A stretch of DNA of 64,000 bases, from IMG/VR virus record IMGVR_UViG_3300032069_000862. One strand, 5' to 3'. Positions 192-23,050 of the stretch are shown here, in pieces. This stretch comes from an uncultured virus (IMG/VR IMGVR_UViG_3300032069_000862) (lineage: Duplodnaviria > Heunggongvirae > Uroviricota > Caudoviricetes). Every line of letters starts with the position of its first letter. Within the stretch, counting starts at the first letter, position 1. The position numbers were made by a program, and so were the translations under genes. The notes under the pieces are model-generated. The model searched no databases. It was not told the origin of the DNA and was given only the letters and a program-made list of their open reading frames with translations.

Positions 192-488
192 TTGATAAAA
201 ATGGGTTCATGGTATGATTATCTCAAGAAATTTCCGAAGCCAAAAAGCATAGTCATTAAGCCATTTGGTTCAAGACTGAAAATAATTCTTCATTATGGTA
301 ACGTTAAGAAAGATAAGGAAATCATAATAGATGAAATTCTTCTGGATTTGATTGGTGTCGGATTGGATGTCGAGAAAGGCGAACTTTGGGGCGATTGGGG
401 TGGAGCAATCAAAATCGGCGACATTATTTACATTCACAAACCAGAAAATCTAAGAAAACTTCCAAGAGTAAAGGTGAAGTTAGTATGA
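192..488 (+). CDS. small protein with C-terminal KVKVxL[IV]-type tag
   Basis: ends RVKVKLV*; stop overlaps next ATG (ATGA at 485-488). Confidence 0.75.
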   Translation: MIKMGSWYDYLKKFPKPKSIVIKPFGSRLKIILHYGNVKKDKEIIIDEILLDLIGVGLDVEKGELWGDWGGAIKIGDIIYIHKPENLRKLPRVKVKLV

Positions 489-859
489 CAAACTGGATTT
501 GGCAGAACTTAGGAACGATTTCACTTTTAGAATCTTGCACAGAAGATGGCGTTATAATTGTGGATATTAGAGATTTGAGTGATGGCGAAACTAATGTTAA
601 AAAAGTGATGAAGAAAATCGAAATCATAGGCAATCTGTTGGCTATTGGATGTAAAGTTGCAGTTCGTTGCGTCGGGGGCATTAATCGAAGTAATTGCATA
701 GCCATAGCAGTCATGAGTTATTTAATTCCGCATGGCGACCTAGAAGAAACTTGGGAATTTCATTGGAAGTTTACCAAAGAACGAGTTCCGAGAATGCAGA
801 TAGTTCCAGAATTAGAAAGAACTTGCAAGAAAGCTCTAAAGCCTATCAGAAATTGGTAA
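485..859 (+). CDS. dual-specificity/tyrosine phosphatase-like protein
   Basis: CX5R loop RCVGGINRS; likely start ATG 485 (coupled to upstream gene, GGTGA RBS) rather than 386. Confidence 0.75.
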   Translation: MTNWIWQNLGTISLLESCTEDGVIIVDIRDLSDGETNVKKVMKKIEIIGNLLAIGCKVAVRCVGGINRSNCIAIAVMSYLIPHGDLEETWEFHWKFTKERVPRMQIVPELERTCKKALKPIRNW

Positions 860-875
860 CCGTAAGGTTTATATA
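858..875 (+). promoter_or_regulatory. archaeal BRE-TATA promoter (AACCRYAA-nn-TTTAWATA family)
   Basis: AACCGTAAGGTTTATATA; similar elements near 1954, 24784, 25307, 36784, 42086, 43251, 44414, 44610, 52035, 57397, 62933 and (- strand) ~41465-41482. Confidence 0.75.
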
Positions 876-913
876 GTGGTCTGACGATTTTATTCTCAAT
901 AGGTGAAAGATGA

Positions 914-1279
914 ATGTATGAAGAAATAATTAAAGGCATACTTTACGGTGCGTTCTATGGTGGACAAGCCGCTTTGTTCGGTTATTTGAAGTCGGAAGAT
1001 TTGCCACTTAGCTGGAAAGTAGTTTTCACCAAAGACTTCTGGGCGGCATTTGACCCGATTAAGGCTCTAAAGACTGTGTTCTTAGGTATGGCAATGGGTG
1101 CATTGACGCAGGGACAAATCTATGGATTGATACCAACAGACCCAATAATAGGCAATTTTGCCAATGATGTCATAGTAATAGGTGTTGACCAGCTCATGAA
1201 ATTGATAGTCCGTAGGACACCACTCGTAAGAGTCTGGAATGCCTTAAAAGAAAAAGCGGGAAAAACTCCGCTACAATAG
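914..1279 (+). CDS. small membrane protein (holin-like candidate)
   Basis: hydrophobic segments, basic C-terminus, own promoter and GGTGA RBS. Confidence 0.45.
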   Translation: MYEEIIKGILYGAFYGGQAALFGYLKSEDLPLSWKVVFTKDFWAAFDPIKALKTVFLGMAMGALTQGQIYGLIPTDPIIGNFANDVIVIGVDQLMKLIVRRTPLVRVWNALKEKAGKTPLQ

Positions 1280-1289
1280 TGGCGTTTAA

Positions 1290-1925
1290 TTGCCACGAAT
1301 TCACGCTTTAATTCCCACTTTTAATTGTTCCGAGTCGATTATAGACTGTCTAAGAAGTTTAGACGGTAAGGTTGACGAAATTATAATTTTGGATGGAAGA
1401 TGGATTGGCGTAAGTGGTTACAGTCTTCATTCTACTGATGACACTATTGAAAAAATTATCGAGTGGGGCATTGATGCTAAGTCAAAGGTCAAATTAATGC
1501 TCGCCAAAGAACAAGTTCATCAGATAGATGCACGAAACCAACTCATTAATGCTGTGCCAGATGGTGATTTTTTCTTGTTTGTTGATTCCGACGAGATTAT
1601 TGTAAAATGGAATCCAAAAATAGATGAGAATCAAATCGGATACAGAATTCGCATGACCAGTGAGAAAATCTTTAAAGAGAAGCCCGACTTTGGTTTGCCT
1701 TTTCCAATTCCACGATTTATGAAAAAGATTAATGGAATTCGCTTTACAAGAAATCATAGATATATGGAAAATAATGACGGAGCAATCTTGATTGGGGATT
1801 TACCAATCATCGAAATTCTCATTGCGAATTTAACTATGTCCGCATCGAAAGCAATGCGAAATACAATGCAAGATTATGAAACATGGTTGCTTAAATGGGA
1901 GCAGGCAAACGAAAACCTTAAATAG
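1290..1925 (+). CDS. GT2-family glycosyltransferase
   Basis: LIPTFN start, IIILDG..STDDT, ARN, FVDSDE (DxD). Confidence 0.85.
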   Translation: MPRIHALIPTFNCSESIIDCLRSLDGKVDEIIILDGRWIGVSGYSLHSTDDTIEKIIEWGIDAKSKVKLMLAKEQVHQIDARNQLINAVPDGDFFLFVDSDEIIVKWNPKIDENQIGYRIRMTSEKIFKEKPDFGLPFPIPRFMKKINGIRFTRNHRYMENNDGAILIGDLPIIEILIANLTMSASKAMRNTMQDYETWLLKWEQANENLK

Positions 1926-1993
1926 TTCAGCGTATAACTAAACGAATGGCGAGAACCATAAACTTTATATATTAGTTTTTACTTTATATAATT

Positions 1994-2131
1994 TTGCCAG
2001 TTCGATGAACTACCGATTTGAACCACATTCAAGTCGGAAAGGCTACTACCTCAAAAAGTGGTGGTCTTTGAGCAAGACCAGAGGTATGTAAACGACCCTT
2101 ATTGCTCTTGGGCACGTCATCGGATTGGCAA
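1994..2131 (+). ncRNA. putative structured non-coding RNA
   Basis: 15-bp closing stem TTGCCAGTTCGATGA/TCATCGGATTGGCAA, internal hairpins, promoter ~25 nt upstream, T-run downstream, no ORF. Confidence 0.55.
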
Positions 2132-2214
2132 TCCTATTTTATAGTTCATGTTTATTCGAGAATTAGAGAAAAGTTTAAATAGAACGATGTCTTAAATTCT
2201 AATAGTGAAACAAA

Positions 2215-2556
2215 GTGACCGATGATAAAATCTGTCCAATTTGCCAATTAAATTCTAAACCAGAGTGGGCTGCATGTTGCGAATGGTGTTGGAATTTCAT
2301 TGGCTGGATTGACGAATTTTATAAAACTGATTATCGAAAACGATTAACTGAAGGAAAACCAGTCGTAATTTGGGAACGGCTTGAAATCAAGAACATTGAG
2401 TGTTACTTTCCATTGTCAAAGGAAGACTGCACCAAAAGAGCAAGGAAGATTGTCAGGGATATATGTGATAAATGCAATAAAGAAATTGAAGACGGATGTG
2501 AACAATGTGTGTGGCACAGTTTAATGCAATCAATCATAGGTGAGGAAATTTGGTAG
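2215..2556 (+). CDS. Cys-rich hypothetical protein
   Basis: several CxxC pairs. Confidence 0.6.
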   Translation: MTDDKICPICQLNSKPEWAACCEWCWNFIGWIDEFYKTDYRKRLTEGKPVVIWERLEIKNIECYFPLSKEDCTKRARKIVRDICDKCNKEIEDGCEQCVWHSLMQSIIGEEIW

Positions 2557-2777
2557 AATGTCCAAAATGCGGAAGCAAAAATATTAATGAGATAATTAGT
2601 AAAGGCGATTATACAAATGAGGGCATGAATCAAGGAATTAAAGAGTTTGACCTTTATCCAATACGACCATGCGTGGAATTTGAATGTGACGATTGCAAGT
2701 TCAGATGGGAAAATCCCATCTATATCGAATATTTGCTTAAAAGAAATATTAAGGAAGCGAAAATAAATGACAGATGA
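2550..2777 (+). CDS. Zn-ribbon protein
   Basis: CPKCGSKNI...CDDC. Confidence 0.65.
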   Translation: MVECPKCGSKNINEIISKGDYTNEGMNQGIKEFDLYPIRPCVEFECDDCKFRWENPIYIEYLLKRNIKEAKINDR

Positions 2778-3069
2778 AGATATAACTTTCAATAAAAAGC
2801 GGGACGAAATAAACGTAAACGAACCTATAATATGCCCAAACTGCGGTAGTAAAAACATAATTCAGACTCCAATAGGCAAATTCACGTTTAAATGTTTAGA
2901 TTGTGGCTTCAATTGGGATGAAGAACGAATTCATGAAGTTCCAGATGAACAAGAATTTGGAAGCGATGAAGATATAGGCGAATATGATTATGATTATGAA
3001 GATTATGGTTATGAAGACGACGAAGAGGATTTAATGGACGAGGACTGGCTCGACCTAGAGGATGAATAA
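2767..3069 (+). CDS. TFB-like Zn-ribbon protein with acidic tail
   Basis: CPNCGSKNII...CLDCG followed by ~45 aa D/E-rich tail. Confidence 0.65.
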   Translation: MTDEDITFNKKRDEINVNEPIICPNCGSKNIIQTPIGKFTFKCLDCGFNWDEERIHEVPDEQEFGSDEDIGEYDYDYEDYGYEDDEEDLMDEDWLDLEDE

Positions 3070-3247: not shown

Positions 3248-3655
3248 ATGTTGTGGATGAACATTTTTTCGATGAGGAATTTGATGCTGACTGAGAGTTA
3301 TGGCGGAATTTGCCCCGTATGTAACTATAAGCGTATGATGTTAAGATATGGCAGTAGTGGATGGTTAGAATATGATGCCTGCCCCAGATGTGGATTCGCC
3401 TTTGCCTCAGATGGACAAGACCCGCCGTTAATTGGTAAAGATTTCTGGAAAGAATTTTTTAAGGCTGAAGGTAAAGCCATGAAAAAAATGGGATTCCCAT
3501 TGACAATGAAGGGCGTTTATGCTTGGATGGAAAGTCTTCCAGAGCCAAAGAATGAACCAATCTCAGTTTTTGATTGGACAGATGGATTTCTCGAAGAAAT
3601 AAAAGAACAAATTAAAAAACAAGGAAAACAAAAAGTCAAAGTGATACTAATATGA
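3248..3655 (+). CDS. Zn-ribbon protein with KVKV tag
   Basis: CPVC/CPRC; ends KVKVILI*; start may be ATG 3284. Confidence 0.7.
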   Translation: MLWMNIFSMRNLMLTESYGGICPVCNYKRMMLRYGSSGWLEYDACPRCGFAFASDGQDPPLIGKDFWKEFFKAEGKAMKKMGFPLTMKGVYAWMESLPEPKNEPISVFDWTDGFLEEIKEQIKKQGKQKVKVILI

Positions 3656-3984
3656 AAACAATAGTTTATAGTGCAAGTGAGATGTATTATTACGTTAAAG
3701 AATTTGCTTGTCCGTGGTGTAATTGGATAAGCACTATGAAATTCAAAACAAAAAAAGAAGCTAATGTTGGATGGGTAAGTAATATGATGGCGTATGGAAA
3801 GTCTGTTAAATATGTTTCTTATTATCGTTCTGTTCTTCCATTCACATTTTGGAAAATTAAAACTGGCAAATCAGTTCAGGTTGAGGATGATGACGAACTC
3901 GTAAGAGATTATGTTCCATGCAGTAAACATAGACCACGATTCTTAAACAGGAAAGACCAAAAGATTAAGGTAATTCTTGTATGA
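3652..3984 (+). CDS. small protein with KVKV tag
   Basis: CPWC; ends KIKVILV*. Confidence 0.7.
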   Translation: MKTIVYSASEMYYYVKEFACPWCNWISTMKFKTKKEANVGWVSNMMAYGKSVKYVSYYRSVLPFTFWKIKTGKSVQVEDDDELVRDYVPCSKHRPRFLNRKDQKIKVILV

Positions 3985-4177: not shown

Positions 4178-4627
4178 ATGCGAAATATATTTCAAATTAC
4201 TTGGAAATATTCAAAGTGGATAAGTTCATTTTATTATGTTGGTTTAAAGGATTTATATTTACGAATTTTAACGTGGCTTAAAAAAGAAAATCCGATAGGG
4301 CGGTATGTAGAGATAGTAAACAAAATTGAGCGGGAAATGTATTGTTCAGGAACATCGGCTGGTGGAATGTGTTATAGAGTATTGATTAAGATTTTTTTAT
4401 TTAAAGAATTTTTTGATAGCGATGATGCCATTGAGGAAGTTACTTGCACAATTTTAGAACACGAACTCTTGCATATGACGCTACGCAATCGAATTAACTC
4501 GCAAACAAGCAAAAAATTGGATAATGTTCACATGCCCCTTTTTGCGAATGGACGATGGACAATAGATTGGAAAATGTCCCAGCATCCCACCCCCCCCACA
4601 CCAGCACTTAAAAAATTAATCAACTGA
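4178..4627 (+). CDS. small HExxH (zincin-like) protein
   Basis: LEHELLH; resembles 17465 and 40975 ORFs. Confidence 0.55.
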   Translation: MRNIFQITWKYSKWISSFYYVGLKDLYLRILTWLKKENPIGRYVEIVNKIEREMYCSGTSAGGMCYRVLIKIFLFKEFFDSDDAIEEVTCTILEHELLHMTLRNRINSQTSKKLDNVHMPLFANGRWTIDWKMSQHPTPPTPALKKLIN

Positions 4628-4698: not shown

Positions 4699-4986
4699 AT
4701 GTCTAATGCGGTTAATTATTGGGGGATTAGTTCTGGTTACTATAAGGAAGTAATTTTTAAAGATAGAACAAGTGGAATAACCATAATGTGCAATGGTTCA
4801 ATACATAATTGCAACGTTTGTATTCATAGGTCATATTGTGACAAAAAAACGGCGAAAACCTTAATGAAGAACGCTCATCTTCATAATAATATGGACATGG
4901 ATAGGATGCGGATTTACATTCCTTATAATTGTCCAATTTATGGTAATCTTAGAGGAAAAGGAAAAGTTAAAGTTCCATTGTATTAA
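4699..4986 (+). CDS. Cys-rich protein with variant tag
   Basis: ends KVKVPLY*. Confidence 0.65.
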   Translation: MSNAVNYWGISSGYYKEVIFKDRTSGITIMCNGSIHNCNVCIHRSYCDKKTAKTLMKNAHLHNNMDMDRMRIYIPYNCPIYGNLRGKGKVKVPLY

Positions 4987-7076: not shown

Positions 7077-8401
7077 ACAAATATTGGCTTTAATTCCAAT
7101 GTGGATTTGGATAGGGATTGGGCTTGCTCTTATATTCGTTCCATTCAAAGACGAAGATGAGTGAGGGATAAAAATTGTCTGAATCTCAAAAGAAAATGGC
7201 TCAAAGATTAATTGACATTCTAAAGGAAATGGGTTATCTAACTGTTTCTTGTGAACCTAATGGACGTGTAGCAATCGCATCTATATCAGCTAGAGATGCT
7301 CAATATTCTTTTAAAAAGGCTCAAGCAATGGCTGTAATAAAACTGAGACAAATATTCACAGAAGCCATAGCAATTTATCAAGCCGAAGAATTAGAAAGAG
7401 AATTCGAGGCAATTAAAAAGATAAAGAAGAGGAATATTATAAATGAATACAGATGAGAGACGGGCTTTTAAAATATTGTGCGAAAAATTTCCAGACAATT
7501 TGGGTTTAACATATCATCTATTCATGGAATTTCTTAAATATCGAAAACAACAAAATTTGCCAGACTATCCAAAACCACAAGATTTAGCAAACGAATTCCT
7601 AGAATTCGAATCATTAAAAGAGAATCGAATCGAATGTCCGTATTGTGGATGCCACATTTTACCAAAATACTATTTAGACCACATTTGTATTTGTAGAAAA
7701 ATCAACGAGAGACAGACCAATAAAAAAAATAATTTGTGAGAATATTCCCCCCGCCCCTTTAGAATTTCGATTTTTTATTTTAGCTTGAAAATTTTGTGGC
7801 TGGGTTAAGGCTTATTGAAATTTGATTTTAAAATTGCTCTAGTTTCTAGTGCAAAATCAAATTTAAAATCTAAATCAAATTAATTTCTAAAACCATTAAT
7901 AAATTCTCAAATAAAATAATTTAAAAATTCTCCAAATTTTTTCTTGCCGTTTTTGGCTCTATGTAGCCGCTGGGATATAGTGTAACCTTTTATTTTTTTG
8001 TGGTTGCACTAATTGTTAGTTTGGTTTAATCAATTGATTAATCAGTTGGGTTTTTCTGAATGCTTATTTAATCAATTGATTAATCTTTTAGACTTTACTA
8101 ATGGAAAAGGGCTCGTTCGAAAATGCACTACATGATTTTGAGTTGAAACCCCAAAAGTCTCTCATATTAGGCTGGTTTGAATGAATTGGGCATTTTTCGG
8201 GAATCTTCGATTTTTCGGTCATGAGGATTTGATGGCGGTGGGTTACAGGTTGTAAATAAACTAGAGATTTAGGCTTGTTTTCGGGAATTCGGCATTTTTC
8301 GAGGCAATTCCGACTTTGAAGTAGCGAGGTAGGCGAAATTAAAAAGATTAATCAATTGATTAAGTGAAACCTTTATTAGTTAGCAGAACCATATATCAAT
8401 C

Positions 8402-8596
8402 ATGTCACATAAAAAGTTCTCAACAAACAAAAAGGGAAAATGCACACATGACACAGTTATTGTGAAATGCAATAGAAAAAATTATGCTGAAACTGAATGT
8501 TTAATTTGTGGAAAAAAATTTAGGCTTGAAAAGAGTGAATTTTGGGTATTTTGGGAGAGAAAAAAGAAAAATCCAATTAAGGTGATTTTAATTTGA
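8402..8596 (+). CDS. small Zn-binding protein with KVKV tag
   Basis: CLICG; ends PIKVILI*; probably leaderless. Confidence 0.7.
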   Translation: MSHKKFSTNKKGKCTHDTVIVKCNRKNYAETECLICGKKFRLEKSEFWVFWERKKKNPIKVILI

Positions 8597-8841
8597 AATG
8601 TCCAATTTGTAAAAATGAAATGGAAATTATTAATGGGGACTTTTTTGTTAAAGCGGGATTACCAAAAGGAAATTATAATTTTTATTATGAATGTAAAAAT
8701 TGTGAAGGTAAGGATTTTGGAAGATATGGATATTGTCGAATTTTGACTAAAAGTGGAAAATGGTATTATTTTAGTAATGGAGAATGGTATTTTTTAAAAG
8801 ACATTGAAATTAAAGTTAAGGTTAAGGTTCTTTTAGTTTAG
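8593..8841 (+). CDS. Zn-ribbon protein with KVKV tag
   Basis: CPIC/CKNC; ends KVKVKVLLV*. Confidence 0.7.
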   Translation: MKCPICKNEMEIINGDFFVKAGLPKGNYNFYYECKNCEGKDFGRYGYCRILTKSGKWYYFSNGEWYFLKDIEIKVKVKVLLV

Positions 8842-10930: not shown

Positions 10931-11434
10931 GAAATCTCGCACACTTTCCACAATTTTGTAATTTTTCATTAAAGTTTTCTCTTAGTTTTAACAATTTTGC
11001 TGTTTGAAGTTGCACGCAGACAAACTTGTCTGCAGTTTGCTAACTGAGAAGATTAATCAGTTGATTAATTTTAATTGTGAGTCTGAAACGACGGATTGCA
11101 ATCCGACGGGTAGGGGTTTTTAAAAGATTAATCAATTGATTAATTTTATTTTGGAGCTGTGAGCTGGAGAACTGCTGGAACACGGGTTGCAACCAGATTG
11201 GTCGAGGAAGAAGTAGAGGGGCTGAAAAGATTAATCAATTGGTTAAGTTTGCTCTTTGATTTAAGGTTCTTTTGGCAAACCGAACTCATTTTAAGGTTTT
11301 ACTAATTAATCAATTGATTAATCTTTTTATTTTGGAGTGGCATGGAGTGGCAGTGGGTCCCCCACTCCTCTGCCTTCTGTCTTGGCAGCAGTAAACTTTA
11401 TTAATCTGTGAGTGCAATATTAATTTAGATAAAC

Positions 11435-11644
11435 ATGAAAGCAATTAAGGATAGTAGATATACTTTTCGTGTAAGCGTTAGTTGTAAATGTGAAGTGTGT
11501 AATTTTGAGGCTCACACTCACAAAGAAATAGATGAGCATTTAAAATTGGGGCATAATTTTAGGGTTGATGATTTAAATAAATGGTTTGAAATACGGGATT
11601 ATGAATTCAACAAGTTACCGAAGGTTAAGGTGTTACTTATATGA
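11435..11644 (+). CDS. C2H2-type Zn-finger protein with KVKV tag
   Basis: CEVC...H....H; ends KVKVLLI*. Confidence 0.7.
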   Translation: MKAIKDSRYTFRVSVSCKCEVCNFEAHTHKEIDEHLKLGHNFRVDDLNKWFEIRDYEFNKLPKVKVLLI

Positions 11645-11892
11645 AAGCGATTGTGATTACTAATAATAATTATCGTGGTCAATTCGTGGTCTGGCTTTTA
11701 AGTATGAATAGACATTACATAAAATATGCGGTGAAAAAGTTAATTGCTGAGGGAAAAGCGGAAGTTTTTGAAATTGGTAAAGATGATAATGAAGATTGGG
11801 AAAAAAACAAAAAGCATTATGCTAAAGCATGGCTTGATTTAGGCGAAATTGTTTTTGGAAAAACGGAAAAGGTGAAGGTGAAATTAATTTGA
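11641..11892 (+). CDS. small protein with KVKV tag
   Basis: ends KVKVKLI*; ATGA coupling. Confidence 0.7.
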   Translation: MKAIVITNNNYRGQFVVWLLSMNRHYIKYAVKKLIAEGKAEVFEIGKDDNEDWEKNKKHYAKAWLDLGEIVFGKTEKVKVKLI

Positions 11893-12128
11893 AATGTGAT
11901 AGATGTGGTCATAAGATAACAAATCATACGATTTATTTTGGCACATGGAAAAACCCAGAAACTATGGAAAAAGCAGAATTGTGTCAAAAATGCTATGAGA
12001 TTTGGAATAAAATTTGGTGGAAAAAATTTCAATCGTGTAGCGTCAATTCCACGCCAGAAATCTCGGAAAAAATCCTTTCACTATTTACGGAATTTATGAG
12101 ATTGAAGGTAAAGGTGATTTTAATATGA
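11889..12128 (+). CDS. Zn-finger protein with KVKV tag (paralog of 13904)
   Basis: KCDRCG...LCQKC; ends KVKVILI*. Confidence 0.7.
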   Translation: MKCDRCGHKITNHTIYFGTWKNPETMEKAELCQKCYEIWNKIWWKKFQSCSVNSTPEISEKILSLFTEFMRLKVKVILI

Positions 12129-12319
12129 GCGGAAAACTTAGAGAAAAAATAATATTTTTGAATGGGATTCCAATTATGGTTTATGAAAAAAACGCTAATC
12201 GACAATTTGAAATTGAAATATGGCTAGAGCCAGAAAGTCTATTGAAAGAATTAAACTTAGTGAAACTTCGTGAGTGTATAAAAGAAACCAAAATTCCAAA
12301 ATTAGATTATGTTGTTTAA
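12125..12319 (+). CDS. hypothetical protein, untagged member of the run
   Basis: coupled start; ends KLDYVV. Confidence 0.6.
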   Translation: MSGKLREKIIFLNGIPIMVYEKNANRQFEIEIWLEPESLLKELNLVKLRECIKETKIPKLDYVV

Positions 12320-12331
12320 AAGTGAACAAAA

Positions 12332-12520
12332 ATGTCAGAAATAAAACGTGGTTGCTACTACTGTGCGAATCGCAATAAATTCAATTGTAAAATCCGCAAA
12401 AAGAATTGGGGTTCTCTTTTTAATGGTTTAATCAAAAACGAAAAGGATATACTAAAGTATAACTTAGGAACAAAATGCCGACAATTTGAACCAAAAAAGG
12501 TTAAGGTGTTGTTAGTTTGA
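12332..12520 (+). CDS. Cys-rich protein with KVKV tag
   Basis: ends KKVKVLLV*. Confidence 0.7.
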   Translation: MSEIKRGCYYCANRNKFNCKIRKKNWGSLFNGLIKNEKDILKYNLGTKCRQFEPKKVKVLLV

Positions 12521-12753
12521 CTAAATTTAAATGTTCGGCTTTAAACGGAAAATTTTGCGGAAATTATAGTAAGCCTAAGTTATGCTGTTATTATTGTTCA
12601 AACCTTCGTGAATGCTTAAAAAAATGGAATCGTTCAAATTGCACGGATATTTATTGTAAAGTAGAAAAACATAATAAATATTGTTCTTTAATTAGGGATT
12701 TTTTTAGAGATAATCCTAATTACAAAATTAAGGTTAAAGTGATACTGATTTGA
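12517..12753 (+). CDS. Cys-rich protein with KVKV tag (paralog of 14349)
   Basis: KFKCSxLNGKFCGN...; ends KIKVKVILI*. Confidence 0.75.
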   Translation: MTKFKCSALNGKFCGNYSKPKLCCYYCSNLRECLKKWNRSNCTDIYCKVEKHNKYCSLIRDFFRDNPNYKIKVKVILI

Positions 12754-12974
12754 CAACATATCAAAAAATCTGTGCGGAATGCGAGAATCCTTTTACATGT
12801 CAAAATGAATGTCATGGAATGTTTGCAAAAATTAAAAAATGTTGTTACTGTGTGGAATGTATTAAAAGAGATAGATTAGACATATATGGCAAACATTTAA
12901 CACACGAAAAATCGGATTTGCGATTATGTTCTCAATTTAAAAAGACGCAAACGGTTAAGGTGATGCTTGTTTGA
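12750..12974 (+). CDS. Cys-rich protein with KVKV tag (paralog of 14122)
   Basis: CxxC..FTC..EC; ends TVKVMLV*. Confidence 0.7.
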   Translation: MTTYQKICAECENPFTCQNECHGMFAKIKKCCYCVECIKRDRLDIYGKHLTHEKSDLRLCSQFKKTQTVKVMLV

Positions 12975-13177
12975 ATTGTGCAAGATGTCACAATAAAGGA
13001 ATTGAGGTCTCAGCTACTTTTAAGATTCGTGAATATTTTAAAGGCAAATTTACTACTGAAAAGTATTTATGCGAAAAGTGTTTAAACGAGTTTAAGAAAA
13101 CGTGCATACCAGAAAACAAAAAATTTGGTTATCGTTATAAGATTTCTGAATTGTCAGTTAAAGTTATTTTGGTGTAA
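12971..13177 (+). CDS. Zn-finger protein with KVKV tag
   Basis: CARC...LCEKC; ends SVKVILV*. Confidence 0.7.
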   Translation: MNCARCHNKGIEVSATFKIREYFKGKFTTEKYLCEKCLNEFKKTCIPENKKFGYRYKISELSVKVILV

Positions 13178-13303
13178 GAAAGTTTTCTGAGGATGGAGAG
13201 GGCGGGCTGGGACGGGGCAAAAAAATTGAAAAGATTAATCAATTGATTAATCACTTTCAAAACATTTATAAGTTAGAATAAACACTAATTAAAGTGATAG
13301 ATA

Positions 13304-13501
13304 ATGAAACCATATCGGAAATTCCTTACATTCATTGCATGGCTCATATCGTTCATTTCTCTACTTTTAGGGATTTTTACATCATATATCATTTTTCACA
13401 TAATTTTTCTCATATCGTGGATAATCTACGGATGCCTAAAAGAAATTCCACAAAACGCTTATAAATGGCTAAAGAACAGAGGTAAACAAAATGTCAAATA
13501 A
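13304..13501 (+). CDS. small membrane protein
   Basis: long hydrophobic stretch. Confidence 0.55.
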   Translation: MKPYRKFLTFIAWLISFISLLLGIFTSYIIFHIIFLISWIIYGCLKEIPQNAYKWLKNRGKQNVK

Positions 13502-13907
13502 AATTCTAACTTTTGAATTAGAAGATATATTCGATTCAATAAATTATAAGAATGGCGTTTTTAAGGATGCTGATATAATAATGAGCCAGAATATTGAATG
13601 TATTTTGAGAAGAGAGGGTTTTTGGAACAAGAAATTGAAAATAGTCTTTCCATGCGGTGCAAATCAGCTAATCGATGTGGAAAATGGCTGTTATCAATAC
13701 GATTTTGAAATTTTTGACGGATTTGATAAAATAGTTGCGAATGGAGTTGCTTATGGCAGTTGTGCCATAATTTTGAAAGATAGAGGCACGATTAAATCTA
13801 CGGAGTTTGAAGATATAGATTATGCTGAAATTACGGACATGCAAATTGAAATGTATAATCATAGTTTAGAACGAATCGGAGAAAAAGTTAAGGTGATTCT
13901 AGTTTGA
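13491..13907 (+). CDS. hypothetical protein with KVKV tag
   Basis: ends EKVKVILV*. Confidence 0.7.
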   Translation: MSNKILTFELEDIFDSINYKNGVFKDADIIMSQNIECILRREGFWNKKLKIVFPCGANQLIDVENGCYQYDFEIFDGFDKIVANGVAYGSCAIILKDRGTIKSTEFEDIDYAEITDMQIEMYNHSLERIGEKVKVILV

Positions 13908-14125
13908 CAATTAAATGTGACAGATGTGGAAAAGACGAATTTTTCACTCCGAATAATTGGGGTAAGAAAAAACCGACTTATTTATGTAAAGAATGTGCAA
14001 CTGAATGGACACGAATTTATCTTAACTGTATATTAAACAATTTTTCCATCAAACAAATAACTCACATTTTTGACTCAAAATTTATGAACGTGAAAGACAA
14101 AAAAGTTAAGGTGACGCTTATTTGA
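13904..14125 (+). CDS. Zn-finger protein with KVKV tag
   Basis: KCDRCG...LCKEC; ends KKVKVTLI*. Confidence 0.7.
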   Translation: MTIKCDRCGKDEFFTPNNWGKKKPTYLCKECATEWTRIYLNCILNNFSIKQITHIFDSKFMNVKDKKVKVTLI

Positions 14126-14352
14126 TTCTTAAAAGACGTTGTGAACGCTGCGGTAAAAATTTCACTTGTCGATTTGAATGTGGAATTGAGGGAAAATTTA
14201 TGAATGATGGAGCTTGTTTTTGTGATAAATGCTATAAAATACTTTTTAATTTCGAATCAGCTAAAAAACTCAAATTAAGTGAAGTTTGCGAATCACGATT
14301 TGGTAAAGAGGCAATATCAAAAAAAGAAAAAATTAAGGTGTTGTTGATATGA
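14122..14352 (+). CDS. Cys-rich protein with KVKV tag
   Basis: ends KIKVLLI*. Confidence 0.7.
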   Translation: MILKRRCERCGKNFTCRFECGIEGKFMNDGACFCDKCYKILFNFESAKKLKLSEVCESRFGKEAISKKEKIKVLLI

Positions 14353-14597
14353 ACAAATTTAAATGTTCGTTTTTAAACGGAAAATTTTGCGGAAATTTTA
14401 GTGAACCTAACTTGTGCTGCTATCGCTGTAAATTCCTTCGTGAATGTTTAGAAAAATGGAATCGGTCAAATTGCACAGACATTTATTGTAAAATAGAAAA
14501 ACGTAATAAATGGTGTTCTGCCATTATAAGATTTTTTAAAGATAATCCTAATCTTAATCCCAATCGCAAAATTAAGGTTAAGGTGATACTGATATGA
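14349..14597 (+). CDS. Cys-rich protein with KVKV tag
   Basis: close paralog of 12517; ends KIKVKVILI*. Confidence 0.75.
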   Translation: MNKFKCSFLNGKFCGNFSEPNLCCYRCKFLRECLEKWNRSNCTDIYCKIEKRNKWCSAIIRFFKDNPNLNPNRKIKVKVILI

Positions 14598-14782
14598 CTG
14601 AGAATTGTAAAGATTGTGAGGATTTAATCGAGAAATATGGTGAGGAAAACCTAAATTTCTGCGAATTTTGTGAACATTATTATCATGGAAAATATTGTGA
14701 TTGTGGAGAAGGTCAAGAATTAAAAGAGCTAGAAAAACAACAAAAACGACACAAGTCTAAAGTTAAGGTCAAATTAATATGA
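14594..14782 (+). CDS. Cys-rich protein with KVKV tag
   Basis: ends KVKVKLI*. Confidence 0.7.
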   Translation: MTENCKDCEDLIEKYGEENLNFCEFCEHYYHGKYCDCGEGQELKELEKQQKRHKSKVKVKLI

Positions 14783-14964
14783 AGGTTAAAATTATTAAAG
14801 CGAGTAAACCGACATATTGGTATGCGAATAAAATAGGTTGCGTGTTTGAGGTTAAGGAAGTTATTTGGCGTGGAAAAAAGGAATACCGATTAATAAAGGA
14901 TAATAGCTATATTATACACATTGAGGATACGAAAACGGAAAAAGTAAAGGTGATTTTAGTTTGA
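14779..14964 (+). CDS. small beta-rich (SH3-like?) protein with KVKV tag
   Basis: KVKIIK...WY...IG.VFEV; ends EKVKVILV*. Confidence 0.7.
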   Translation: MKVKIIKASKPTYWYANKIGCVFEVKEVIWRGKKEYRLIKDNSYIIHIEDTKTEKVKVILV

Positions 14965-15010
14965 TAAATAAGGAAAAGAACCTTAAAACCATATCAGAAG
15001 TGAGGGATTT

Positions 15011-15220
15011 ATGAGTTTTCAAGATTACGATGATTTATGCGTGGAATGTGAATTCCATGATAAATGTCACAAAAACGGAATTGACTATGCGAAGGTTGAA
15101 CATTGTCAAATAGATGCTTTTGGTCACAATGGAAATTGGTTAAAGATTCCAAAACCGAAACCAATTAAGTTAAAGATTCCAAAAGAAAAACCAAAACCAA
15201 TAAAAGTGATATTGATTTGA
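15011..15220 (+). CDS. Cys-rich protein with KVKV tag
   Basis: CVEC; LKIPK duplicated; ends PIKVILI*. Confidence 0.7.
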   Translation: MSFQDYDDLCVECEFHDKCHKNGIDYAKVEHCQIDAFGHNGNWLKIPKPKPIKLKIPKEKPKPIKVILI

Positions 15221-15351
15221 AAGTTCTGGTCACAAGTGGTTGCGGATTGCCCCTTTTTTCAGAGAAACTTAATCAATTGATTAATCTTCTCACAGTAGTT
15301 AAAAAGTAAAACAAGCCTCTGAAAGAGAAAGTTAAAGTTATTTTGGTTTAA
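15217..15351 (+). pseudogene. degenerate tagged ORF
   Basis: TTG overlapping upstream stop, in-frame TAA at 15307-15309, same frame then reads KEKVKVILV*. Confidence 0.5.
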
Positions 15352-16759
15352 AAACCCCCCTAGCCCGCTGCATTTTTCTAATTTTTCCGAGCCTAAAATT
15401 TATAAGTTTTTCAAAACCTCTCAATTAATTTTAATTTAATCAATTGATTAATCTTTTTTGGTTTCGCCACAAGGTTGCTGGCATTAATTTATTTATAAAT
15501 CTCTTTAAACAGTTTCTAAATTTTCTCTAAAAAAATGACAGAAAATTAAAAATTAAAAATTTGGCTCTATGTAGCGGCTATGCGACCTTCAGTTTAACTT
15601 TCTATGCAACCAATTTAACTTTCCATGCAACCAGAAAAATGGGGAAATAACCACAAATAAAGGAGTGTTCAGGATTTGAGGCGATTTTAGAGGTGGATTT
15701 TCTATTTGTGGTTATTTTCACGGTTTTTTTCACGACTTGTCTTTTTGTTCTACACTTGTATATATAGGCAAACAGATATTTAAACAAATCCTTTAATCAA
15801 TTGATTAATCAATGGAAATTTAAACATTGAATCAAATCTATAAACAAGTATAAACAAGTCAAAAACCACAAAATTAATCAATTGATTAATCAGTAAACAG
15901 ATTTTCAAAAACTGATTAATCGATAATGTCAAATCGCTAAAAAACCCACGTTAAATTTCACAATATCCATAAAAATTTAAAGCCTAAACGAAGTCGCTTT
16001 TAACCCGAATCGTTCAAATTCTGCTTATCGGATTTAAACCGTCAATAAAATCAATTCCGAAATTTATCATGGGCAAACAAGAACTGATTTTTAAAAACGA
16101 CCTCAAACGACGGTTTTTTAGCGATATTAGGCATAATTCTAGTTTTTCGGTTTGTTTTTTGGTTTAATCGACTGATTAAGTTTTTTGACTGTTTCGTGTA
16201 GTTTTGTTGAACAGATAAGCAATTTGGTTTAATCAATTGATTAATTAATTTCTGATATGGGCAGCATGGAGAAATATCTTTTTTTTGAACATATCCAAAA
16301 TTAGACATATTAACTCTAAAATTTTAGAGTAGCTCTAATTTTTTAGATGTGTTTATTTTGAGACATATTTAATCAGTTGATTAATCTTTTTAATTTGGGC
16401 TTGTTTTGATTTTAGAATTATTAAATTGCGGTTCTTTTTAGATTTAAAGGCAAATTTGAGGATTTTCAAAAATCCTTTACAATTGTAAACCGTGACTTGT
16501 ATGCCAAATATACACGATTTATAAACAAAAACCAAAACCTTTAAATAAACTGTATATTTCCATAAAATCGCATGGAATTAATTTTCCATGCTTTTAGGAT
16601 TTTAAGAGGTTTACAAACGTAAACGAATTGCTTATATAATCATGCGGCTTCCATGCTTTTTGATTTATTTTTCCATAAAGTCAAAATCTCACTCCGTGAA
16701 AAACTCACTCCATAACGGAGTATATAAAGAGGTATATAAAGACTTCGAAGTTTATATAT

Positions 16760-17098
16760 CTAAAGAAAACTCGCTAAATATCGAACCTTTTCGTGAACAA
16801 GGTCTTTTCTAGCCATATTTTTGTAGTGGTGAACTTTTCCATGACAATAAGAGCATAAGAGAACAAAATTGTCAATATTTGATTCAATGTAATCCAATCC
16901 TTCGGGTTTATTTGAATTAGGGTGCTGTTTGCCGTGTATTTCGTGAAAGCTCAATGATAATCGCCTTATTTTGAATTTAGTTAATCCTTCAAGCCTTCCA
17001 CAAACAAAACACTTATTTCCAAGCCTATTTTTCAATTCTATTCGCTTTTCAGCCATCATTTTCTCATATTTTTCAAGGAATTTATCCATATTAAACAC
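16760..17098 (-). CDS. HNH endonuclease-like protein
   Basis: LGNKCFVCG...FHEIH...LLCSYCHGKVH. Confidence 0.75.
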   Translation of the reverse strand: MFNMDKFLEKYEKMMAEKRIELKNRLGNKCFVCGRLEGLTKFKIRRLSLSFHEIHGKQHPNSNKPEGLDYIESNIDNFVLLCSYCHGKVHHYKNMARKDLVHEKVRYLASFL

Positions 17099-18909: not shown

Positions 18910-18928
18910 GGAGATTTAGTAAAAAGAG

Positions 18929-19822
18929 GTGAAAATCATGTCAGAAAATAAAATCGTCTCAAAAATCGGTGGAAAATCGATAAAAGGCGTGAATTACATC
19001 GATTCGCACGAATATATACCTAAAGCTAAGGCTATTTTGGAAACGGTTGGCAATTTAAGGCTTGTTGGTGAAACAGGGACAGGAAAAACCACGATGGTGC
19101 ATAAACTTAGCGAAATTTACGATATGCCTTTATTCGAAATTGTCTTAACTAGAGATATAACTAAATGGGACTTATTGGCAAGTGATGTGCTGCGTGAAGG
19201 TTCTACTCAAACAAGAGAAGGCATAATTTTAAAATGGCTGCGTGCAGATAAAGGCATTTTATACTTAGATGGCTTTAATTATGCCGAACCGTCAATTTTG
19301 AGCTTAATTGAAAGCCTAACAGACTTTAGAGGTTCAGTTTGGATTCCAGAGCTTGAAAGCGTCTTTAAACGAACCGAAAAACACTATTTAATCATAAGTT
19401 ACAATCCTTCGGAGAAAAGCGGCTATTCTGGGACCTTTTTGGAGAATATCGCCACAATTCGAAGATTTGAAGGCTTGATAGTCGATTATATCGACAGAAA
19501 AGACGAAATAGACCTGATTCGTGACGCAAATGGCGGAGACTACGATTTTGCGGTCAAATTTGTCGAAATAGCCAGAAAAACAAGAGATTTATACAAAAGG
19601 GGCAAATTGCGAACTCCGATTACTACGGGAAATCTATTGAATTATGCAAGTCTATTTGGCAAAAAGAACTTATCTGAAGCTGATTTAGTCGAAATAGCCG
19701 CATCGCTTTACCCAGAAGATGAAAGAGAACTATTTACGAGGCTATTCGAAGAAAAAGGCGAAATTGATGTCGAAAAAGCCAAAAAAGACGCAGAACAAGA
19801 CGCAGATGACGAAACAAGCTAA
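18929..19822 (+). CDS. MoxR/CbbQ/NorQ-like AAA+ ATPase
   Basis: Walker A GETGTGKT, atypical Walker B LYLDGFN, SYNP, RRF arginine finger; vWA partner downstream. Confidence 0.85.
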   Translation: MKIMSENKIVSKIGGKSIKGVNYIDSHEYIPKAKAILETVGNLRLVGETGTGKTTMVHKLSEIYDMPLFEIVLTRDITKWDLLASDVLREGSTQTREGIILKWLRADKGILYLDGFNYAEPSILSLIESLTDFRGSVWIPELESVFKRTEKHYLIISYNPSEKSGYSGTFLENIATIRRFEGLIVDYIDRKDEIDLIRDANGGDYDFAVKFVEIARKTRDLYKRGKLRTPITTGNLLNYASLFGKKNLSEADLVEIAASLYPEDERELFTRLFEEKGEIDVEKAKKDAEQDADDETS

Positions 19823-20132: not shown

Positions 20133-20783
20133 GTGGAAAATATGGATAAAAACGAAATCGTGTTAGATGCTAAGGCTTTAGAGACAATGGGGCTGCATTC
20201 TGAAGAGATTTACACGATTGAATACGATTTAGCATCGGAATTGAAAATTAGACGCAATTCCACGCCCGAAGAGAAAAAACAAGCTCAAAAAATGAACGAA
20301 TTGGCTAGAGAATTCCGAAATAAGCTGCAATTTATCTTAAAATTCAAATTGCATGCAACAAAACACTTAGAATCATCATGGATAATCTCTAAGGAAAATT
20401 TAGAAGCCGCTGTTAATACCTTATCAGAGCTAAAAGAATCTATGAGAAATAAAGGCTTTAAAGATGTCGATAAAAGACTTAGAATAATCCCTATTTTGAC
20501 AACAGTCGAAGGATTCGAAAGCTACGAGGAAAAGAAGGCTGAATTTCTGCTAAATTTCGCTATGGAACATACAAAATACTGTGATTTGGCAATTAAGACT
20601 AAAAAAATGCCTAGAGGGACAATGTGGCGATGCAAAGAGGCTTATTCGATAATTAATGCCTTAAAAGAGGAGCTAAAGGGAAATAAGCGTTATAATGAGC
20701 TTGTTGATACCGTTGGAGTCTTAGGCGAACGTATTTCGCTTGCAGAAGCCTCAATAAAGCCAGAAACCGAAAAAGAAGCCTAA
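20133..20783 (+). CDS. helical hypothetical protein in MoxR-vWA operon
   Basis: 216 aa ORF with GAGGTG RBS. Confidence 0.65.
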   Translation: MENMDKNEIVLDAKALETMGLHSEEIYTIEYDLASELKIRRNSTPEEKKQAQKMNELAREFRNKLQFILKFKLHATKHLESSWIISKENLEAAVNTLSELKESMRNKGFKDVDKRLRIIPILTTVEGFESYEEKKAEFLLNFAMEHTKYCDLAIKTKKMPRGTMWRCKEAYSIINALKEELKGNKRYNELVDTVGVLGERISLAEASIKPETEKEA

Positions 20784-20831
20784 ATCTTCCCTATTTTCTT
20801 ATGTAAAAAAAACAAAAAAGAGGTTTGAAAT

Positions 20832-22505
20832 ATGAAAAATAAACAAAAAAAGAACGGTAAAAATGAAAATTTCAGCGAGCAATTAGATGATTTGCGGAAT
20901 TTAGCCTTAACCATAACAAAAGATGACAAAATAGGTGTGAAATATGACGCAAAAGCTCAAACAAGCTATTTTAATCCAGAAAATGATGAAATAACCTTAT
21001 CTCTAGCTCCATACCCAGAATTCGTTTCAAAAACTGAACGATTAGCTAAAAAAATCTTAGATGGGGATTTATTACACGAATCGCTACATAATACTTTAAC
21101 TAAACCAATTTGGCATAGTTTAAACAATTTTGCTACACATATCCAAAATAAAAGAGGTTCAGTAGAATTAGCTAAACACATTATAAATCTTGTTGAGGAT
21201 AAACGAATAAACTATTTTGGAGAAATTAGATTTAGGCTTGATTTAGGCAAACGATTGCAATTAGCGAATCTTATCTTAAAAGACACGATAGAAACGTCGC
21301 TAAAGAATAAACGACAACCAATTACGCTTAATTTTGGCGAAGCACCTTTAATTATGGGCGTTTTGTGTGATAAAGGCTTATATGAGGCTAATGTGACAGA
21401 AATAACTCAAAAAATGTCAGATAAGGCAAAAGAGGCAACAAATAAGGCTTTAGAAATATTGGAAAATACCAAATATATGAGGTTAAAAATCGACATAATA
21501 AAGGCAATTGAGCAAATATACGACTTAATTGAACCGTTTTGCGACAAATCTAGCGAATCCGAACTTAAAATGCTAATTCCGTCACGCAGAGGGGGCGATT
21601 TAAAAGGAGAACTTTCAAATTCGCTTAAAAACGCTTTAATGGCTCAAATTAAAGAGGAAGAGCAAAAAGAGGCAAAAGAAAAGGCTCAACAGCTAATTGA
21701 AGACTTATTAAAGGGCGGTTCGGCTGGAGAAGGCACGGGCGAAGAGATTCCAGCTCCAGAGCCGAATTTTGCGGAGTATTCACGATTAGTGGACAGAAAT
21801 AAAGCGGAAATAACCAAATTGCTCAATAAACTAAAGATTCACTTAAAACCACGCTTTAAAAGGGAGATTTTCCAAAAACGAGGCAAATTTATGTCGCCTT
21901 TAACCTCTAGAGCATATATAAACTCATTTCGCAGCGAAGTCAAAAACGTATATATGAACAATAGAGTAAAATTCGAAAAAGAACAAGTCGCAATAGGATT
22001 TTTATTCGACTTTAGCGGCAGTGTAGAACGGTCACAAGCCTTAGACATCACAACAATATTAAATGAAGTATTTGGTAATTATGTCGATGATTTAGGGTTT
22101 GCAATTGCCGTATTTGGCGAAAACAGTCAAAAAATAAAGACGTTTTTCGAAACCTTCGCTAATACACGAGCTAGAATCGGAAATATCAATGTTTCAGCCT
22201 CTGGAACGGAAATAAGCGTTAATTTGGCTTCGTTTCTCAAAATGCTCAATAAAGTGAACCCAGAACGTCATAAAATGCTTGTAATAGCCTCTGATTTCAA
22301 TTTCGGCGATGAAGATAAGGCTTTAGACCTAATAAAGCTATATTCGAAGGCTAATATTGATATGATTTTCATTGGTTTTTGTGATTGTCAAAAAGTTAAA
22401 ACCTTCGCTAGCGGAGTTAAAGGAATCATTAAGAGAACATACATAAAGAACGTAAAAGAATTGCCAGATAGGTTCTTAGAGGTATATCTAAGTTTACAAA
22501 AATAA
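20832..22505 (+). CDS. vWA (MIDAS) protein with N-terminal HExxH domain, CobT-like MoxR partner
   Basis: LLHESLH...NLVEDKRI; FDFSGS, SGT, IASD MIDAS elements. Confidence 0.85.
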   Translation: MKNKQKKNGKNENFSEQLDDLRNLALTITKDDKIGVKYDAKAQTSYFNPENDEITLSLAPYPEFVSKTERLAKKILDGDLLHESLHNTLTKPIWHSLNNFATHIQNKRGSVELAKHIINLVEDKRINYFGEIRFRLDLGKRLQLANLILKDTIETSLKNKRQPITLNFGEAPLIMGVLCDKGLYEANVTEITQKMSDKAKEATNKALEILENTKYMRLKIDIIKAIEQIYDLIEPFCDKSSESELKMLIPSRRGGDLKGELSNSLKNALMAQIKEEEQKEAKEKAQQLIEDLLKGGSAGEGTGEEIPAPEPNFAEYSRLVDRNKAEITKLLNKLKIHLKPRFKREIFQKRGKFMSPLTSRAYINSFRSEVKNVYMNNRVKFEKEQVAIGFLFDFSGSVERSQALDITTILNEVFGNYVDDLGFAIAVFGENSQKIKTFFETFANTRARIGNINVSASGTEISVNLASFLKMLNKVNPERHKMLVIASDFNFGDEDKALDLIKLYSKANIDMIFIGFCDCQKVKTFASGVKGIIKRTYIKNVKELPDRFLEVYLSLQK

Positions 22506-22518
22506 AGAGGTTAAAACC

Positions 22519-22830
22519 ATGACATACCAAATAGTTAAAACGGGCGATTTGCGATTCTTTTACAAAAATAGGCAATTAAAAGCCACGTTGCAGATAAGCG
22601 ACGCTATTAATAAGCATAAATGTGCAACGGTTCGCTTAAATGATTCGTTATTCAAAAGCGGGTCTAGTCAATTGGCTGTTTACACATCGGACTTCGAAAA
22701 ACACTCAGATGAACGAATCCTCTCTTTTATAGTCAATGAAACTAATTCAGAGCTTGGAAACGCCATATTTCGACAAATAAGGCAAGATTTGGGCTTTAAA
22801 CCCGACAAAATAAAGGTTCAATTGATTTAA
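22519..22830 (+). CDS. hypothetical protein with KVKV tag
   Basis: ends KIKVQLI*. Confidence 0.7.
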   Translation: MTYQIVKTGDLRFFYKNRQLKATLQISDAINKHKCATVRLNDSLFKSGSSQLAVYTSDFEKHSDERILSFIVNETNSELGNAIFRQIRQDLGFKPDKIKVQLI

Positions 22831-22843
22831 AGAGGTTAAGACC

Positions 22844-23050
22844 GTGTTAAACAAAAAAGACATTAAAATATTGAATCAACAAAAAACAAAAAATCCATGC
22901 GGCTTAATTGCATGCGTAAAACGTAAAAAAGACTGTAAAACTTGCTCAGTTAAGTATATGACAAAACACAAATTTGCGATTAGTGATTTTAATTGGTTTT
23001 ATGAACCAATAAAACGCAAAAAAACCAAAATAAAAGTGATGTTGATATGA
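22844..23050 (+). CDS. Cys-rich protein with KVKV tag
   Basis: ends KIKVMLI*. Confidence 0.7.
   Translation: MLNKKDIKILNQQKTKNPCGLIACVKRKKDCKTCSVKYMTKHKFAISDFNWFYEPIKRKKTKIKVMLI

Follow-up and report, generated by a model that had tools for sequence, protein, structure and literature searches.

The 64,000-nt stretch of DNA analysed here (the window), taken from the uncultured virus record IMGVR_UViG_3300032069_000862 of IMG/VR, encodes a series of small proteins that end in nearly the same seven residues, referred to here as the tag. The consensus of this C-terminal heptapeptide was K-[VI]-K-V-x-L-[IV]-stop, and its sites spanned positions 192 to 23050. Searches against Pfam identified in the window an HK97-type capsid protein, a large terminase and an HK97 gp10-like tail component, as well as RadA, an ATP-dependent ligase, a KaiC-like ATPase and a MoxR ATPase adjoining a vWA gene. 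The source of the window is a tailed virus. No tRNA genes were found in the window, and its terminase matched no relative among the GenBank phages by tblastn. A complete 112-kb relative, G001, was present in IMG/VR, with 70-88% identity to the window across syntenic blocks.

The original prediction, made from the letters of the window, had listed 22 open reading frames (ORFs) sharing the terminal tag. This was confirmed, with 21 of them ending in [VI]KVxL[IV] and one, 4699..4986, ending in KVKVPLY. The pattern [VI]KV.L[IVY]-stop was carried by 22 of the 157 plus-strand ORFs of at least 40 aa, vs none of 163 on the minus strand. In a six-frame translation of the window the hexapeptide [VI]KV.L[IV] occurred 22 times on the plus strand, always directly before a stop codon, with no internal copy and none in the minus frames. 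A 23rd copy of the tag, beyond the 22 listed, was located at 15331-15351. The tag observation is real and far from chance.

All of the tagged ORFs lie on the plus strand and encode proteins of at most 138 aa. A tag site was called coupled when its stop was TGA, overlapped by the start of a downstream ORF of at least 40 aa. The first tagged ORF, 192..488 (98 aa, RVKVKLV-TGA), had its stop overlapped by the ATG of the next ORF. The ORF at 3248..3655 (135 aa, KVKVILI-TGA), with a tagged and 78% identical ortholog in G001, was coupled to the one starting at 3652 (3652..3984, 110 aa, KIKVILV-TGA), in which Val was spelled GTA and the downstream ORF had just 36 aa. The variant ORF 4699..4986 (95 aa, KVKVPLY-TAA) was uncoupled and read AAA GTT, with no GGTG. 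Further along, 8402..8596 (64 aa, PIKVILI-TGA) was coupled through a TTG start, and 8593..8841 (82 aa, KVKVLLV-TAG) was uncoupled, with Val as GTT.

A long array was opened by 11435..11644 (69 aa, KVKVLLI-TGA), followed by 11641..11892 (83 aa, KVKVKLI-TGA; the G001 ortholog ends KIRVILI) and 11889..12128 (79 aa, KVKVILI-TGA), the latter coupled to the untagged ORF 12125-12319. It continued with 12332..12520 (62 aa, KVKVLLV-TGA; the G001 ortholog, 85% identical, ends KVEVLLV), 12517..12753 (78 aa, KVKVILI-TGA), 12750..12974 (74 aa, TVKVMLV-TGA) and 12971..13177 (68 aa, SVKVILV-TAA), which was uncoupled, read AAA GTT and closed this sub-array. The next tagged ORFs were 13491..13907 (138 aa, KVKVILV-TGA), 13904..14125 (73 aa, KVKVTLI-TGA), 14122..14352 (76 aa, KIKVLLI-TGA), 14349..14597 (82 aa, KVKVILI-TGA; the paralog of 12517), 14594..14782 (62 aa, KVKVKLI-TGA, Val as GTC) and 14779..14964 (61 aa, KVKVILV-TGA), the last without a real downstream partner (17 codons). 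After 15011..15220 (69 aa, PIKVILI-TGA) came an orphan tag at 15310..15351, consisting of 13 open codons, NKPLKEKVKVILV, followed by TAA and lacking a start codon; the 23rd copy is its end. The two remaining tagged ORFs were 22519..22830 (103 aa, KIKVQLI-TAA), directly 3' of the vWA gene and uncoupled with Val as GTT, and 22844..23050 (68 aa, KIKVMLI-TGA), coupled to the ORF starting at 23047.

Structural and replication proteins had been described as untagged, and none of those annotated by Pfam carried the tag. The tagged proteins themselves were mostly unrelated, as had also been proposed. Once the tag was trimmed, the sole clear paralog pair was 12517/14349 (76% identity), the other tagged ORFs showing a few weak Zn-ribbon links (E 1e-5 to 1e-2), and Pfam gave nothing above weak zinc-ribbon matches for the tagged ORFs of the window. 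These results supported the view of a large repertoire of unrelated accessory proteins. Common to many of these proteins was the context of the tag: it followed a Lys/Pro/Glu-rich linker of varying length in ortholog alignments, the 12 residues preceding it contained 23.5% Lys vs 11.8% in the protein body, and at least two CxxC pairs were present in 27/60 and 12/16 tagged proteins.

For codon-level comparisons a relaxed motif, [VI][KRE]V.L[IVLY]-stop, was counted, giving 23 sites in the window and 39 in G001 (62 sites). All 62 were on the coding strand and directly before the stop, and the internal occurrences of the tag motifs in coding frames numbered 0-1. Leu was found at 62/62 sites through all six codons, at about genome-wide usage (TTA, TTG, CTA, CTT and CTG in the window, in agreement with the codon variation reported in the original prediction). 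Leu represents only 29% of xTx codons, and Phe, Ile, Val and Met never occurred at this position. The information content of the tag sites was 3-periodic, with little information at the third codon position and much at the first two.

The tag was coupled at 46 of the 62 sites and uncoupled at the other 16. In the window, five sites ended in TAA or TAG and three more in a TGA without a downstream ORF of at least 40 aa, so that the claimed persistence of the tag in genes without a coupled partner was upheld. Two uncoupled ortholog pairs shared with G001 illustrate this persistence: the pair of 4699, with 24% identity over 72 aa, had identical last 7 residues, and the pair of 12971, with 48% identity, was tagged in both genomes, both members of each pair ending in TAA. 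Likewise, 13491 had six homologs, in at least four other viruses, that ended without exception in KVKV[IML]L[IV] after 8-10 divergent residues. Conversely, untagged junctions with the stop in WTGA (W being A or T) were present in the same genomes, ending YIKKGNIQ*, KKPCEGCK* or ETWEWLLE*, and ordinary junctions of G002, a more distant relative described below, ended EEVKKQ* or KKKVKQK*. Since untagged coupled junctions exist, the hydrophobic tail is not required for coupling, and coupling does not explain the peptide. The proposed selection on the protein was borne out by the codon periodicity, the free synonymous codons and the retention of the tag in uncoupled genes; conservation confined to the DNA level was examined, and the opposite was found, with synonymous variation around a constant peptide.

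Nevertheless, part of the DNA conservation reflects translational coupling, which the original prediction had overlooked. Among the 22 listed stops, 18 were TGA codons that overlap the next start as ATGA or TTGA. At the array junctions AAGGTG, a Shine-Dalgarno (SD)-type site, stood exactly 8 nt ahead of the overlapping start, within the DNA-level consensus RTN AAR GTG NNN YTN RTW TGA. The ATG or TTG of the next gene was formed by the third base of the last tag codon and the TG of the stop, and TTG starts were frequent at tag junctions. The same GGTG was also found 5-10 nt before many non-overlapping starts in the window. Coupling accounts for Val being spelled GTG and Lys AAG, for the A or T that ends the last codon, and for the TGA stop.

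These features depended on the presence of a following gene. Val was GTG at 45/46 coupled sites vs 5/16 uncoupled ones, which mostly used GTT, the Val codon preferred by the genome (0.50), and GGTG was present at 32/46 coupled vs 4/16 uncoupled sites (Fisher p = 0.003). As an internal control, the Lys within the SD site was AAG in 32/34 cases and the Lys two codons upstream was AAA in 31/45. The SD is therefore an overlay on a peptide tag. Programmed frameshifting of the release factor 2 (RF2) type at the junction was considered and rejected, the downstream gene being in the -1 frame with no slippery pattern shared.

The related viruses placed the tag in a wider context. Three further terminase relatives, all complete genomes, were found among 97 hits to the terminase family, G002 at 52% identity and G003 and G004 at about 35%. 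G001 encodes an archaeal-type LonB, MCM, ribosomal protein L10e, papain-like and trypsin-like peptidases and a cluster for glycan synthesis (sugar modification). From this gene content the virus is archaeal. When the viral L10e was used as a query against candidate hosts, it matched only in one metagenome-assembled genome (MAG) labelled "uncultured archaeon" (G005). Two contigs of this MAG, C132 and C26 (L196 and L197), were fragments of a third virus of the clade, with 79-89% nucleotide identity to G001 and tagged genes of their own. Their presence in G005 could be an artefact of binning, or else hint weakly at the host. In the rest of G005 and in 20 related small archaeal genomes the tag pattern was found only at control level. 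One MoxR homolog bore the label Candidatus Aenigmatarchaeota.

The KVxLI pattern was not found in G002, G003 or G004. G002 had a tag of its own, about 16-17 small ORFs ending F[VI]FR-stop, in which Arg was AGG with a TGA stop (the SD, AGGTGA, including the stop) and AGA or CGA with TAA or TAG stops; no enriched C-terminus was detected in G003 or G004. Scans of IMG/VR with the DNA pattern gave arrays in G001 only, among the matches listed, and at least 103 other loci that were single and chance-like. A search of JGI metagenomes with a MoxR alignment yielded 58 loci, of which 25 were at least 6 kb long (within these, L199 and L224 are the same record, and L209 and L213 are near-identical). At least three small ORFs shared a C-terminal 4-mer in 17/25 of these loci and at least five in 12/25, with two or fewer in the other 8. 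The tag types recovered were [KR]-E-x-V-x-F-T, V-x-F-[DN], V-x-L-T, W-R-I-A, [DE]-[KR]-V-C, F[VI]FR and KVxL[IV], most of them sharing a hydrophobic-x-hydrophobic-z pattern. The window tag is thus one of at least six lineage-specific tags among related uncultured viruses.

The [KR]-E-x-V-x-F-T tag was carried by 41 ORFs in 20 kb of L209. In this locus E.V.FT stood directly before a stop in 38/38 six-frame occurrences. Over the 87 sites of the ExVxFT family, Val was conserved 87/87 (GTG 40, GTT 19, GTA 17, GTC 11), Phe 87/87 (TTC 44, TTT 43) and Glu 83/87 (GAA 55, GAG 28), while five codons (AAA, AAG, AGA, AGG and CGG) encoded the basic residue at -7. All of the tag types were conserved at the peptide level. 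Junction architectures differed between tags and comprised an SD with 8 nt and ATGA, AGG TGA, TGG AGA ... TAATG and AAG GTG TGT TAG ATG. In total, 227 tagged proteins fell into 151 BLASTP clusters, 103 of them singletons, and none of the 105 tagged proteins submitted to Pfam gave a match at E<=1e-4.

Protein families shared between lineages did not carry a common tag. The family of 13491 bears three different tags in other lineages, and its members ended KVKVILV in the window, KVKVLLI in G001, KVEFT in L209 and TVILT in L220. That of 15011 ended IKVILI in the window and L201 or KVLFT in L209 and L213, and members of a third cross-lineage family ended FVFR, KIKVVLI, VVQFT and IVKFD. Judged by these families, the tag tracks the genome and not the protein family.

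The turnover of the tagged genes, considered here as cassettes, was then compared with the uniformity of their ends. The window, G001 and L201 differed in the content and order of the cassettes that lie between their conserved flanks. Codon identity, where the amino acid was the same, was 0.44-0.47 within genomes vs 0.443 between the window and G001, and adjacent genes were no more alike (window p = 0.14, G001 p = 0.35). Junction DNA made uniform by recombination, as in an integron-like or conversion joint, was not found. As the synonymous sites are unhomogenised, the uniformity of the tag derives from selection on residues and not from homogenised DNA.

Natural variants were obtained from contigs of independent sediment metagenomes aligned to the window at 11300-15400, a comparison of low statistical power. 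One natural strain joined 15193 to 15322, skipping 128 nt, just before two tags; by our own frame arithmetic from the coordinates, this join would give gene 15011 the orphan tag (15310-15351) as its end, in the same frame. Another had lost 1832 nt, and with them about eight genes, by a deletion that joined 12539 to 14372 within 26 bases common to the paralogs 12517 and 14349. Smaller changes were an in-frame AAAAAG insertion (KK) in the Lys linker of 12332, at 12494, and a 9-nt insertion at junction 14591. Among the 38 natural single-base differences only one fell in a tag (14585 G>A, gene 14349), and it was synonymous, GTG to GTA.

The neighbouring genes offered a weak candidate for a reader of the tag. 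A MoxR-type AAA+ ATPase (18929..19822, plus strand; Pfam AAA_5 2.9e-13), with 189 homologs at E<=1e-20, is followed on the same strand by p216 (20133..20783), a conserved protein without a Pfam match present in 21/25 of the MoxR loci of at least 6 kb, and by a 557-aa HExxH-vWA protein (20832..22505). This last protein contains an invariant H82-E83-x-x-H86 in its N-terminal half and a metal ion-dependent adhesion site (MIDAS) in its C-terminal half, where D393, S395, S397 and D488 were invariant across 28 sequences; the vWA protein next to the AAA_5 MoxR thus has its MIDAS intact. E122 and D123 were nearly invariant in the N-terminal half. The AlphaFold2 (AF2) model of the 557-aa protein reached a mean predicted local distance difference test (pLDDT) of 85.5, with the N-terminal half forming a small sheet and then long helices that bear H82, E83, H86, E122 and D123. 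By fold, the vWA domain was closest to the MDN1/Rea1 MIDAS, at Z 20.4 with 199 aligned and an rmsd of 2.9, and to NorD, at Z 18.1. The HExxH half had no Pfam or PDB sequence match, and whole-protein fold searches gave vWA-domain matches only. The combination of both halves may represent a metallopeptidase, perhaps a zincin, fused to a MIDAS domain.

The genes for MoxR, p216 and the vWA protein occurred together in most loci with enough sequence, with the tag arrays beside or inside the trio. The trio was present in the tagged genomes (window, G001, G002) and absent from the untagged G003 and G004, a distribution that is confounded by phylogeny. LonB was also encoded by the tag-less G003 and G004. 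A complex prediction that paired residues 95-138 of the 13491 family, together with Mg and Zn, to the vWA protein (from a 28-row alignment) gave 0.00, 0.43 and 0.00, scores that were obtained without controls and count neither for nor against binding. A speculative and improbable proposal is that MoxR, p216 and the HExxH-vWA(MIDAS) protein are virus-encoded readers of the free carboxylate of the tag and of its hydrophobic-x-hydrophobic strand, which would unfold, process, clear or load one fifth of the proteins of the virus on cue, with tag and reader co-evolving. If this were true, every lineage would have its own address code for accessory proteins that change rapidly.

Other features were observed around the arrays and the module. 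The palindrome AATCAATTGATT, which reads ...NQLIN... in the ORF lists, was present in 20 copies in the window (for example at 8028, 8070, 8350, 11130, 11308, 13237, 15271, 15438, 23557 and 23740) and 24 in G001. Its copies were mainly intergenic and flanked the tagged arrays; it probably marks the boundaries of operons, as a promoter, operator or terminator signal. The ORF coupled to the first tagged gene, 488-859, was dual-specificity-phosphatase-like (DSPc 1e-05, under the Pfam cut-off) and lies near a family-2 glycosyltransferase at 1290-1925. The ORF 4178-4627 (149 aa) contains a HELLH (HExxH) motif without a Pfam match and had a homolog of 64% identity in G001 and none in G002-G004. Between the arrays and the MoxR module, where the window is richest in AT (GC 0.28), lies an HNH-endonuclease-like ORF (16760-17098) on the minus strand. 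Like its LonB, MCM, L10e, peptidases and sugar cluster, two DruA-like proteins, an SPFH/Band 7 protein and a Spo11/TopoVI-A-like Toprim protein were encoded by G001 outside the span of the window.

The explanation that we favour, and consider somewhat better than an even chance, is that the heptapeptide serves as a free, portable address peptide at the C-terminus, which a genome-specific partner would read, and that its codons have been co-opted as a standard gene joint. Upheld by selection on its amino acids, the tag would be a short strand-prone tail placed after a Lys/Pro/Glu-rich linker on some 23 (window) to 39 (G001) small orphan proteins, often CxxC-rich. It would be read by a single partner, particular to the genome or to its host, for docking, turnover or loading; such a shared partner is likely because each cassette bears the tag of its own genome whatever its protein family. 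The original prediction had likewise proposed a terminal beta-strand docking signal, a degron or a signal for virion loading. When a following gene is present, Lys-Val is spelled AAG GTG and forms the SD, and the last codon with TGA provides the ATGA or TTGA overlap 8 nt downstream. Each cassette thus ends in a standard joint that would express the next one, and it is at or close to such joints that natural strains acquire, drop and fuse cassettes.

Several observations weigh against this explanation. No reader of the tag was found. The AF2 models of the 13491 family (6 sequences) had a mean pLDDT of 37 and were unusable, so the notion of a free tail relies only on features of the sequence. 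An SD and a stop/start junction are embedded in every tag family, in a register particular to each, and the tags could originate from, and still serve, translation itself. In L209 adjacent genes showed a marginally higher codon identity (0.54 vs 0.46, p = 0.019), and some local duplication contributes there. The tag lineages beyond G001 and G002 came from the MoxR search, and their association with the MoxR module follows from the way in which they were found. Finally, the gene calls were mechanical (the first start of each open frame), and some of the coupled downstream ORFs may not be genes.

Two of the alternatives place the cause in translation. If the peptide were a pure by-product of a ribosome-binding site, a spacer and the ATGA overlap, conserved at the DNA or RNA level only, then the 18/22 stops in WTGA, the AAGGTG exactly 8 nt before the start, the use of GTG for Val at 45/46 coupled sites and the recurrence of an SD and a stop/start junction in every tag family would all follow. 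This account is very improbable and was largely refuted by the codon-periodic conservation, by Leu at 62/62 sites over six codons with TTY, ATN and GTN never at its position, by basic residues kept via AAA, AGA and CGG, by uncoupled genes that lose GGTG and keep the peptide even at 24-48% body identity, and by other coupled junctions, in the same and in related genomes, without such a tail. Alternatively, residues of the nascent chain, or their tRNAs, could tune termination, ribosome retention and re-initiation without any separate reader. The position of the tags, always at the stop, their variation with the junction architecture and the frequent TTG starts would suit such a role, which we nonetheless regard as improbable. 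Of the 62 sites, 16 were uncoupled yet tagged, the tag survived deep divergence in two uncoupled ortholog pairs, many coupled junctions function in its absence, and the conservation extends 6-7 residues back, including a basic residue and Glu that lie outside the SD.

The other two alternatives accept the peptide or the joint and dispense with a specific reader. The tag could have an intrinsic physicochemical role, such as sticking to membranes or nucleic acids, self-association by strand pairing, or resisting or attracting general proteolysis. The Lys-rich region before the tag (23.5% and 28% Lys), the frequency of CxxC pairs, suggesting nucleic-acid-binding Zn-ribbons, and the hydrophobic-x-hydrophobic-z pattern common to most tags are consistent with this role. 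For a generic property there would be no need of last residues that are near-invariant and specific to a lineage (I/V, T, D/N, R, A, C), or of a choice between Leu and Phe to which dozens of genes per genome strictly hold, and we consider this alternative fairly unlikely. A recombination joint, kept uniform through gene conversion or through inheritance of the junction of the recipient genome, would account for the differing cassette content and order between conserved flanks, for the natural strains with the 15193-15322 fusion, the 1832-nt deletion between paralogs and the 9-nt insertion, and for orthologs bearing the tag of the resident genome. It is quite improbable as the cause of the tag: synonymous identity was as low within as between genomes, adjacent genes were not more alike in 2/3 genomes, and the large natural deletion used 26 nt of paralog identity and not the tag. 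Recombination would explain modularity but not the conservation of amino acids.

A portable address tag would bear on how viral accessory genes are organised. Large viruses carry many tiny orphan genes, and about a fifth of the genes in this archaeal virus group would share a lineage-specific address peptide, a shared tag implying one common partner that handles the whole fast-evolving accessory set. The tag peptide could serve as bait in the search for this partner and the tag type as a marker of co-evolution across lineages. A single short sequence would be a signal in the protein and at the same time supply the ribosome-binding site and start codon of the next gene and a modular joint between the two, and this multi-role joint may explain how arrays gain and lose genes without loss of expression. 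As the tags can be described by regular expressions, the accessory repertoire could be recognised automatically in metagenomes. No description of such tags was found in the part of the literature covered, which was not searched by the peptide itself, and within that part the wider pattern of genome-specific C-terminal tags on arrays of viral mini-proteins is previously undescribed.

Of the known systems, translational coupling is the closest at the DNA level. ATGA or TGATG overlaps with an SD inside the upstream gene are typical of termination-reinitiation coupling. The junctions described here share with it an SD that contains GGTG and stands 8 nt ahead of a start, which in turn overlaps the stop of the preceding gene, and the SD-forming AAG and GTG are used mainly where a gene follows; the SD spacing is suitable, and start and stop overlap at 46/62 sites. 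Coupling alone, however, gives no 7-residue peptide with free synonymous variation that is kept in uncoupled genes. At the protein level, C-terminal degrons (ssrA-like tags, ClpX C-motifs and Lon degrons) are similarly strictly C-terminal, with a hydrophobic end after basic residues, and G001 encodes LonB and two other peptidases. The viral tags differ in being genome-encoded on each gene and not added, and LonB is also encoded by the tag-less genomes.

For the candidate reader, the nearest parallels are the Rea1/MDN1 MIDAS, which binds ligands with ubiquitin-like (UBL) domains, and NorQ-NorD, where a MIDAS/vWA domain works with an AAA+ ATPase, as the 557-aa vWA protein adjoins the MoxR ATPase. 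Binding of a C-terminal carboxylate of a partner is known from complement factor B. The viral module differs in the N-terminal HExxH half of the 557-aa protein, which is unclassified, and its co-occurrence with the tags is not independent, as the module was the search bait.

Regarding loading, the internal proteins of phage T4 carry a capsid targeting sequence that is N-terminal and cleaved, and encapsulins, whose shells have the HK97 fold, use C-terminal cargo-loading peptides. As in these systems, a short terminal peptide is found here on unrelated small proteins, in a virus with an HK97-type capsid, and it behaves as a portable tag that is independent of the cargo fold and conserved by selection on amino acids. 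In contrast to the N-terminal, cleaved sequence of T4, the tag is C-terminal. The virus group described here differs from both systems in that at least 20% of the genes are tagged and the tag changes between close lineages.

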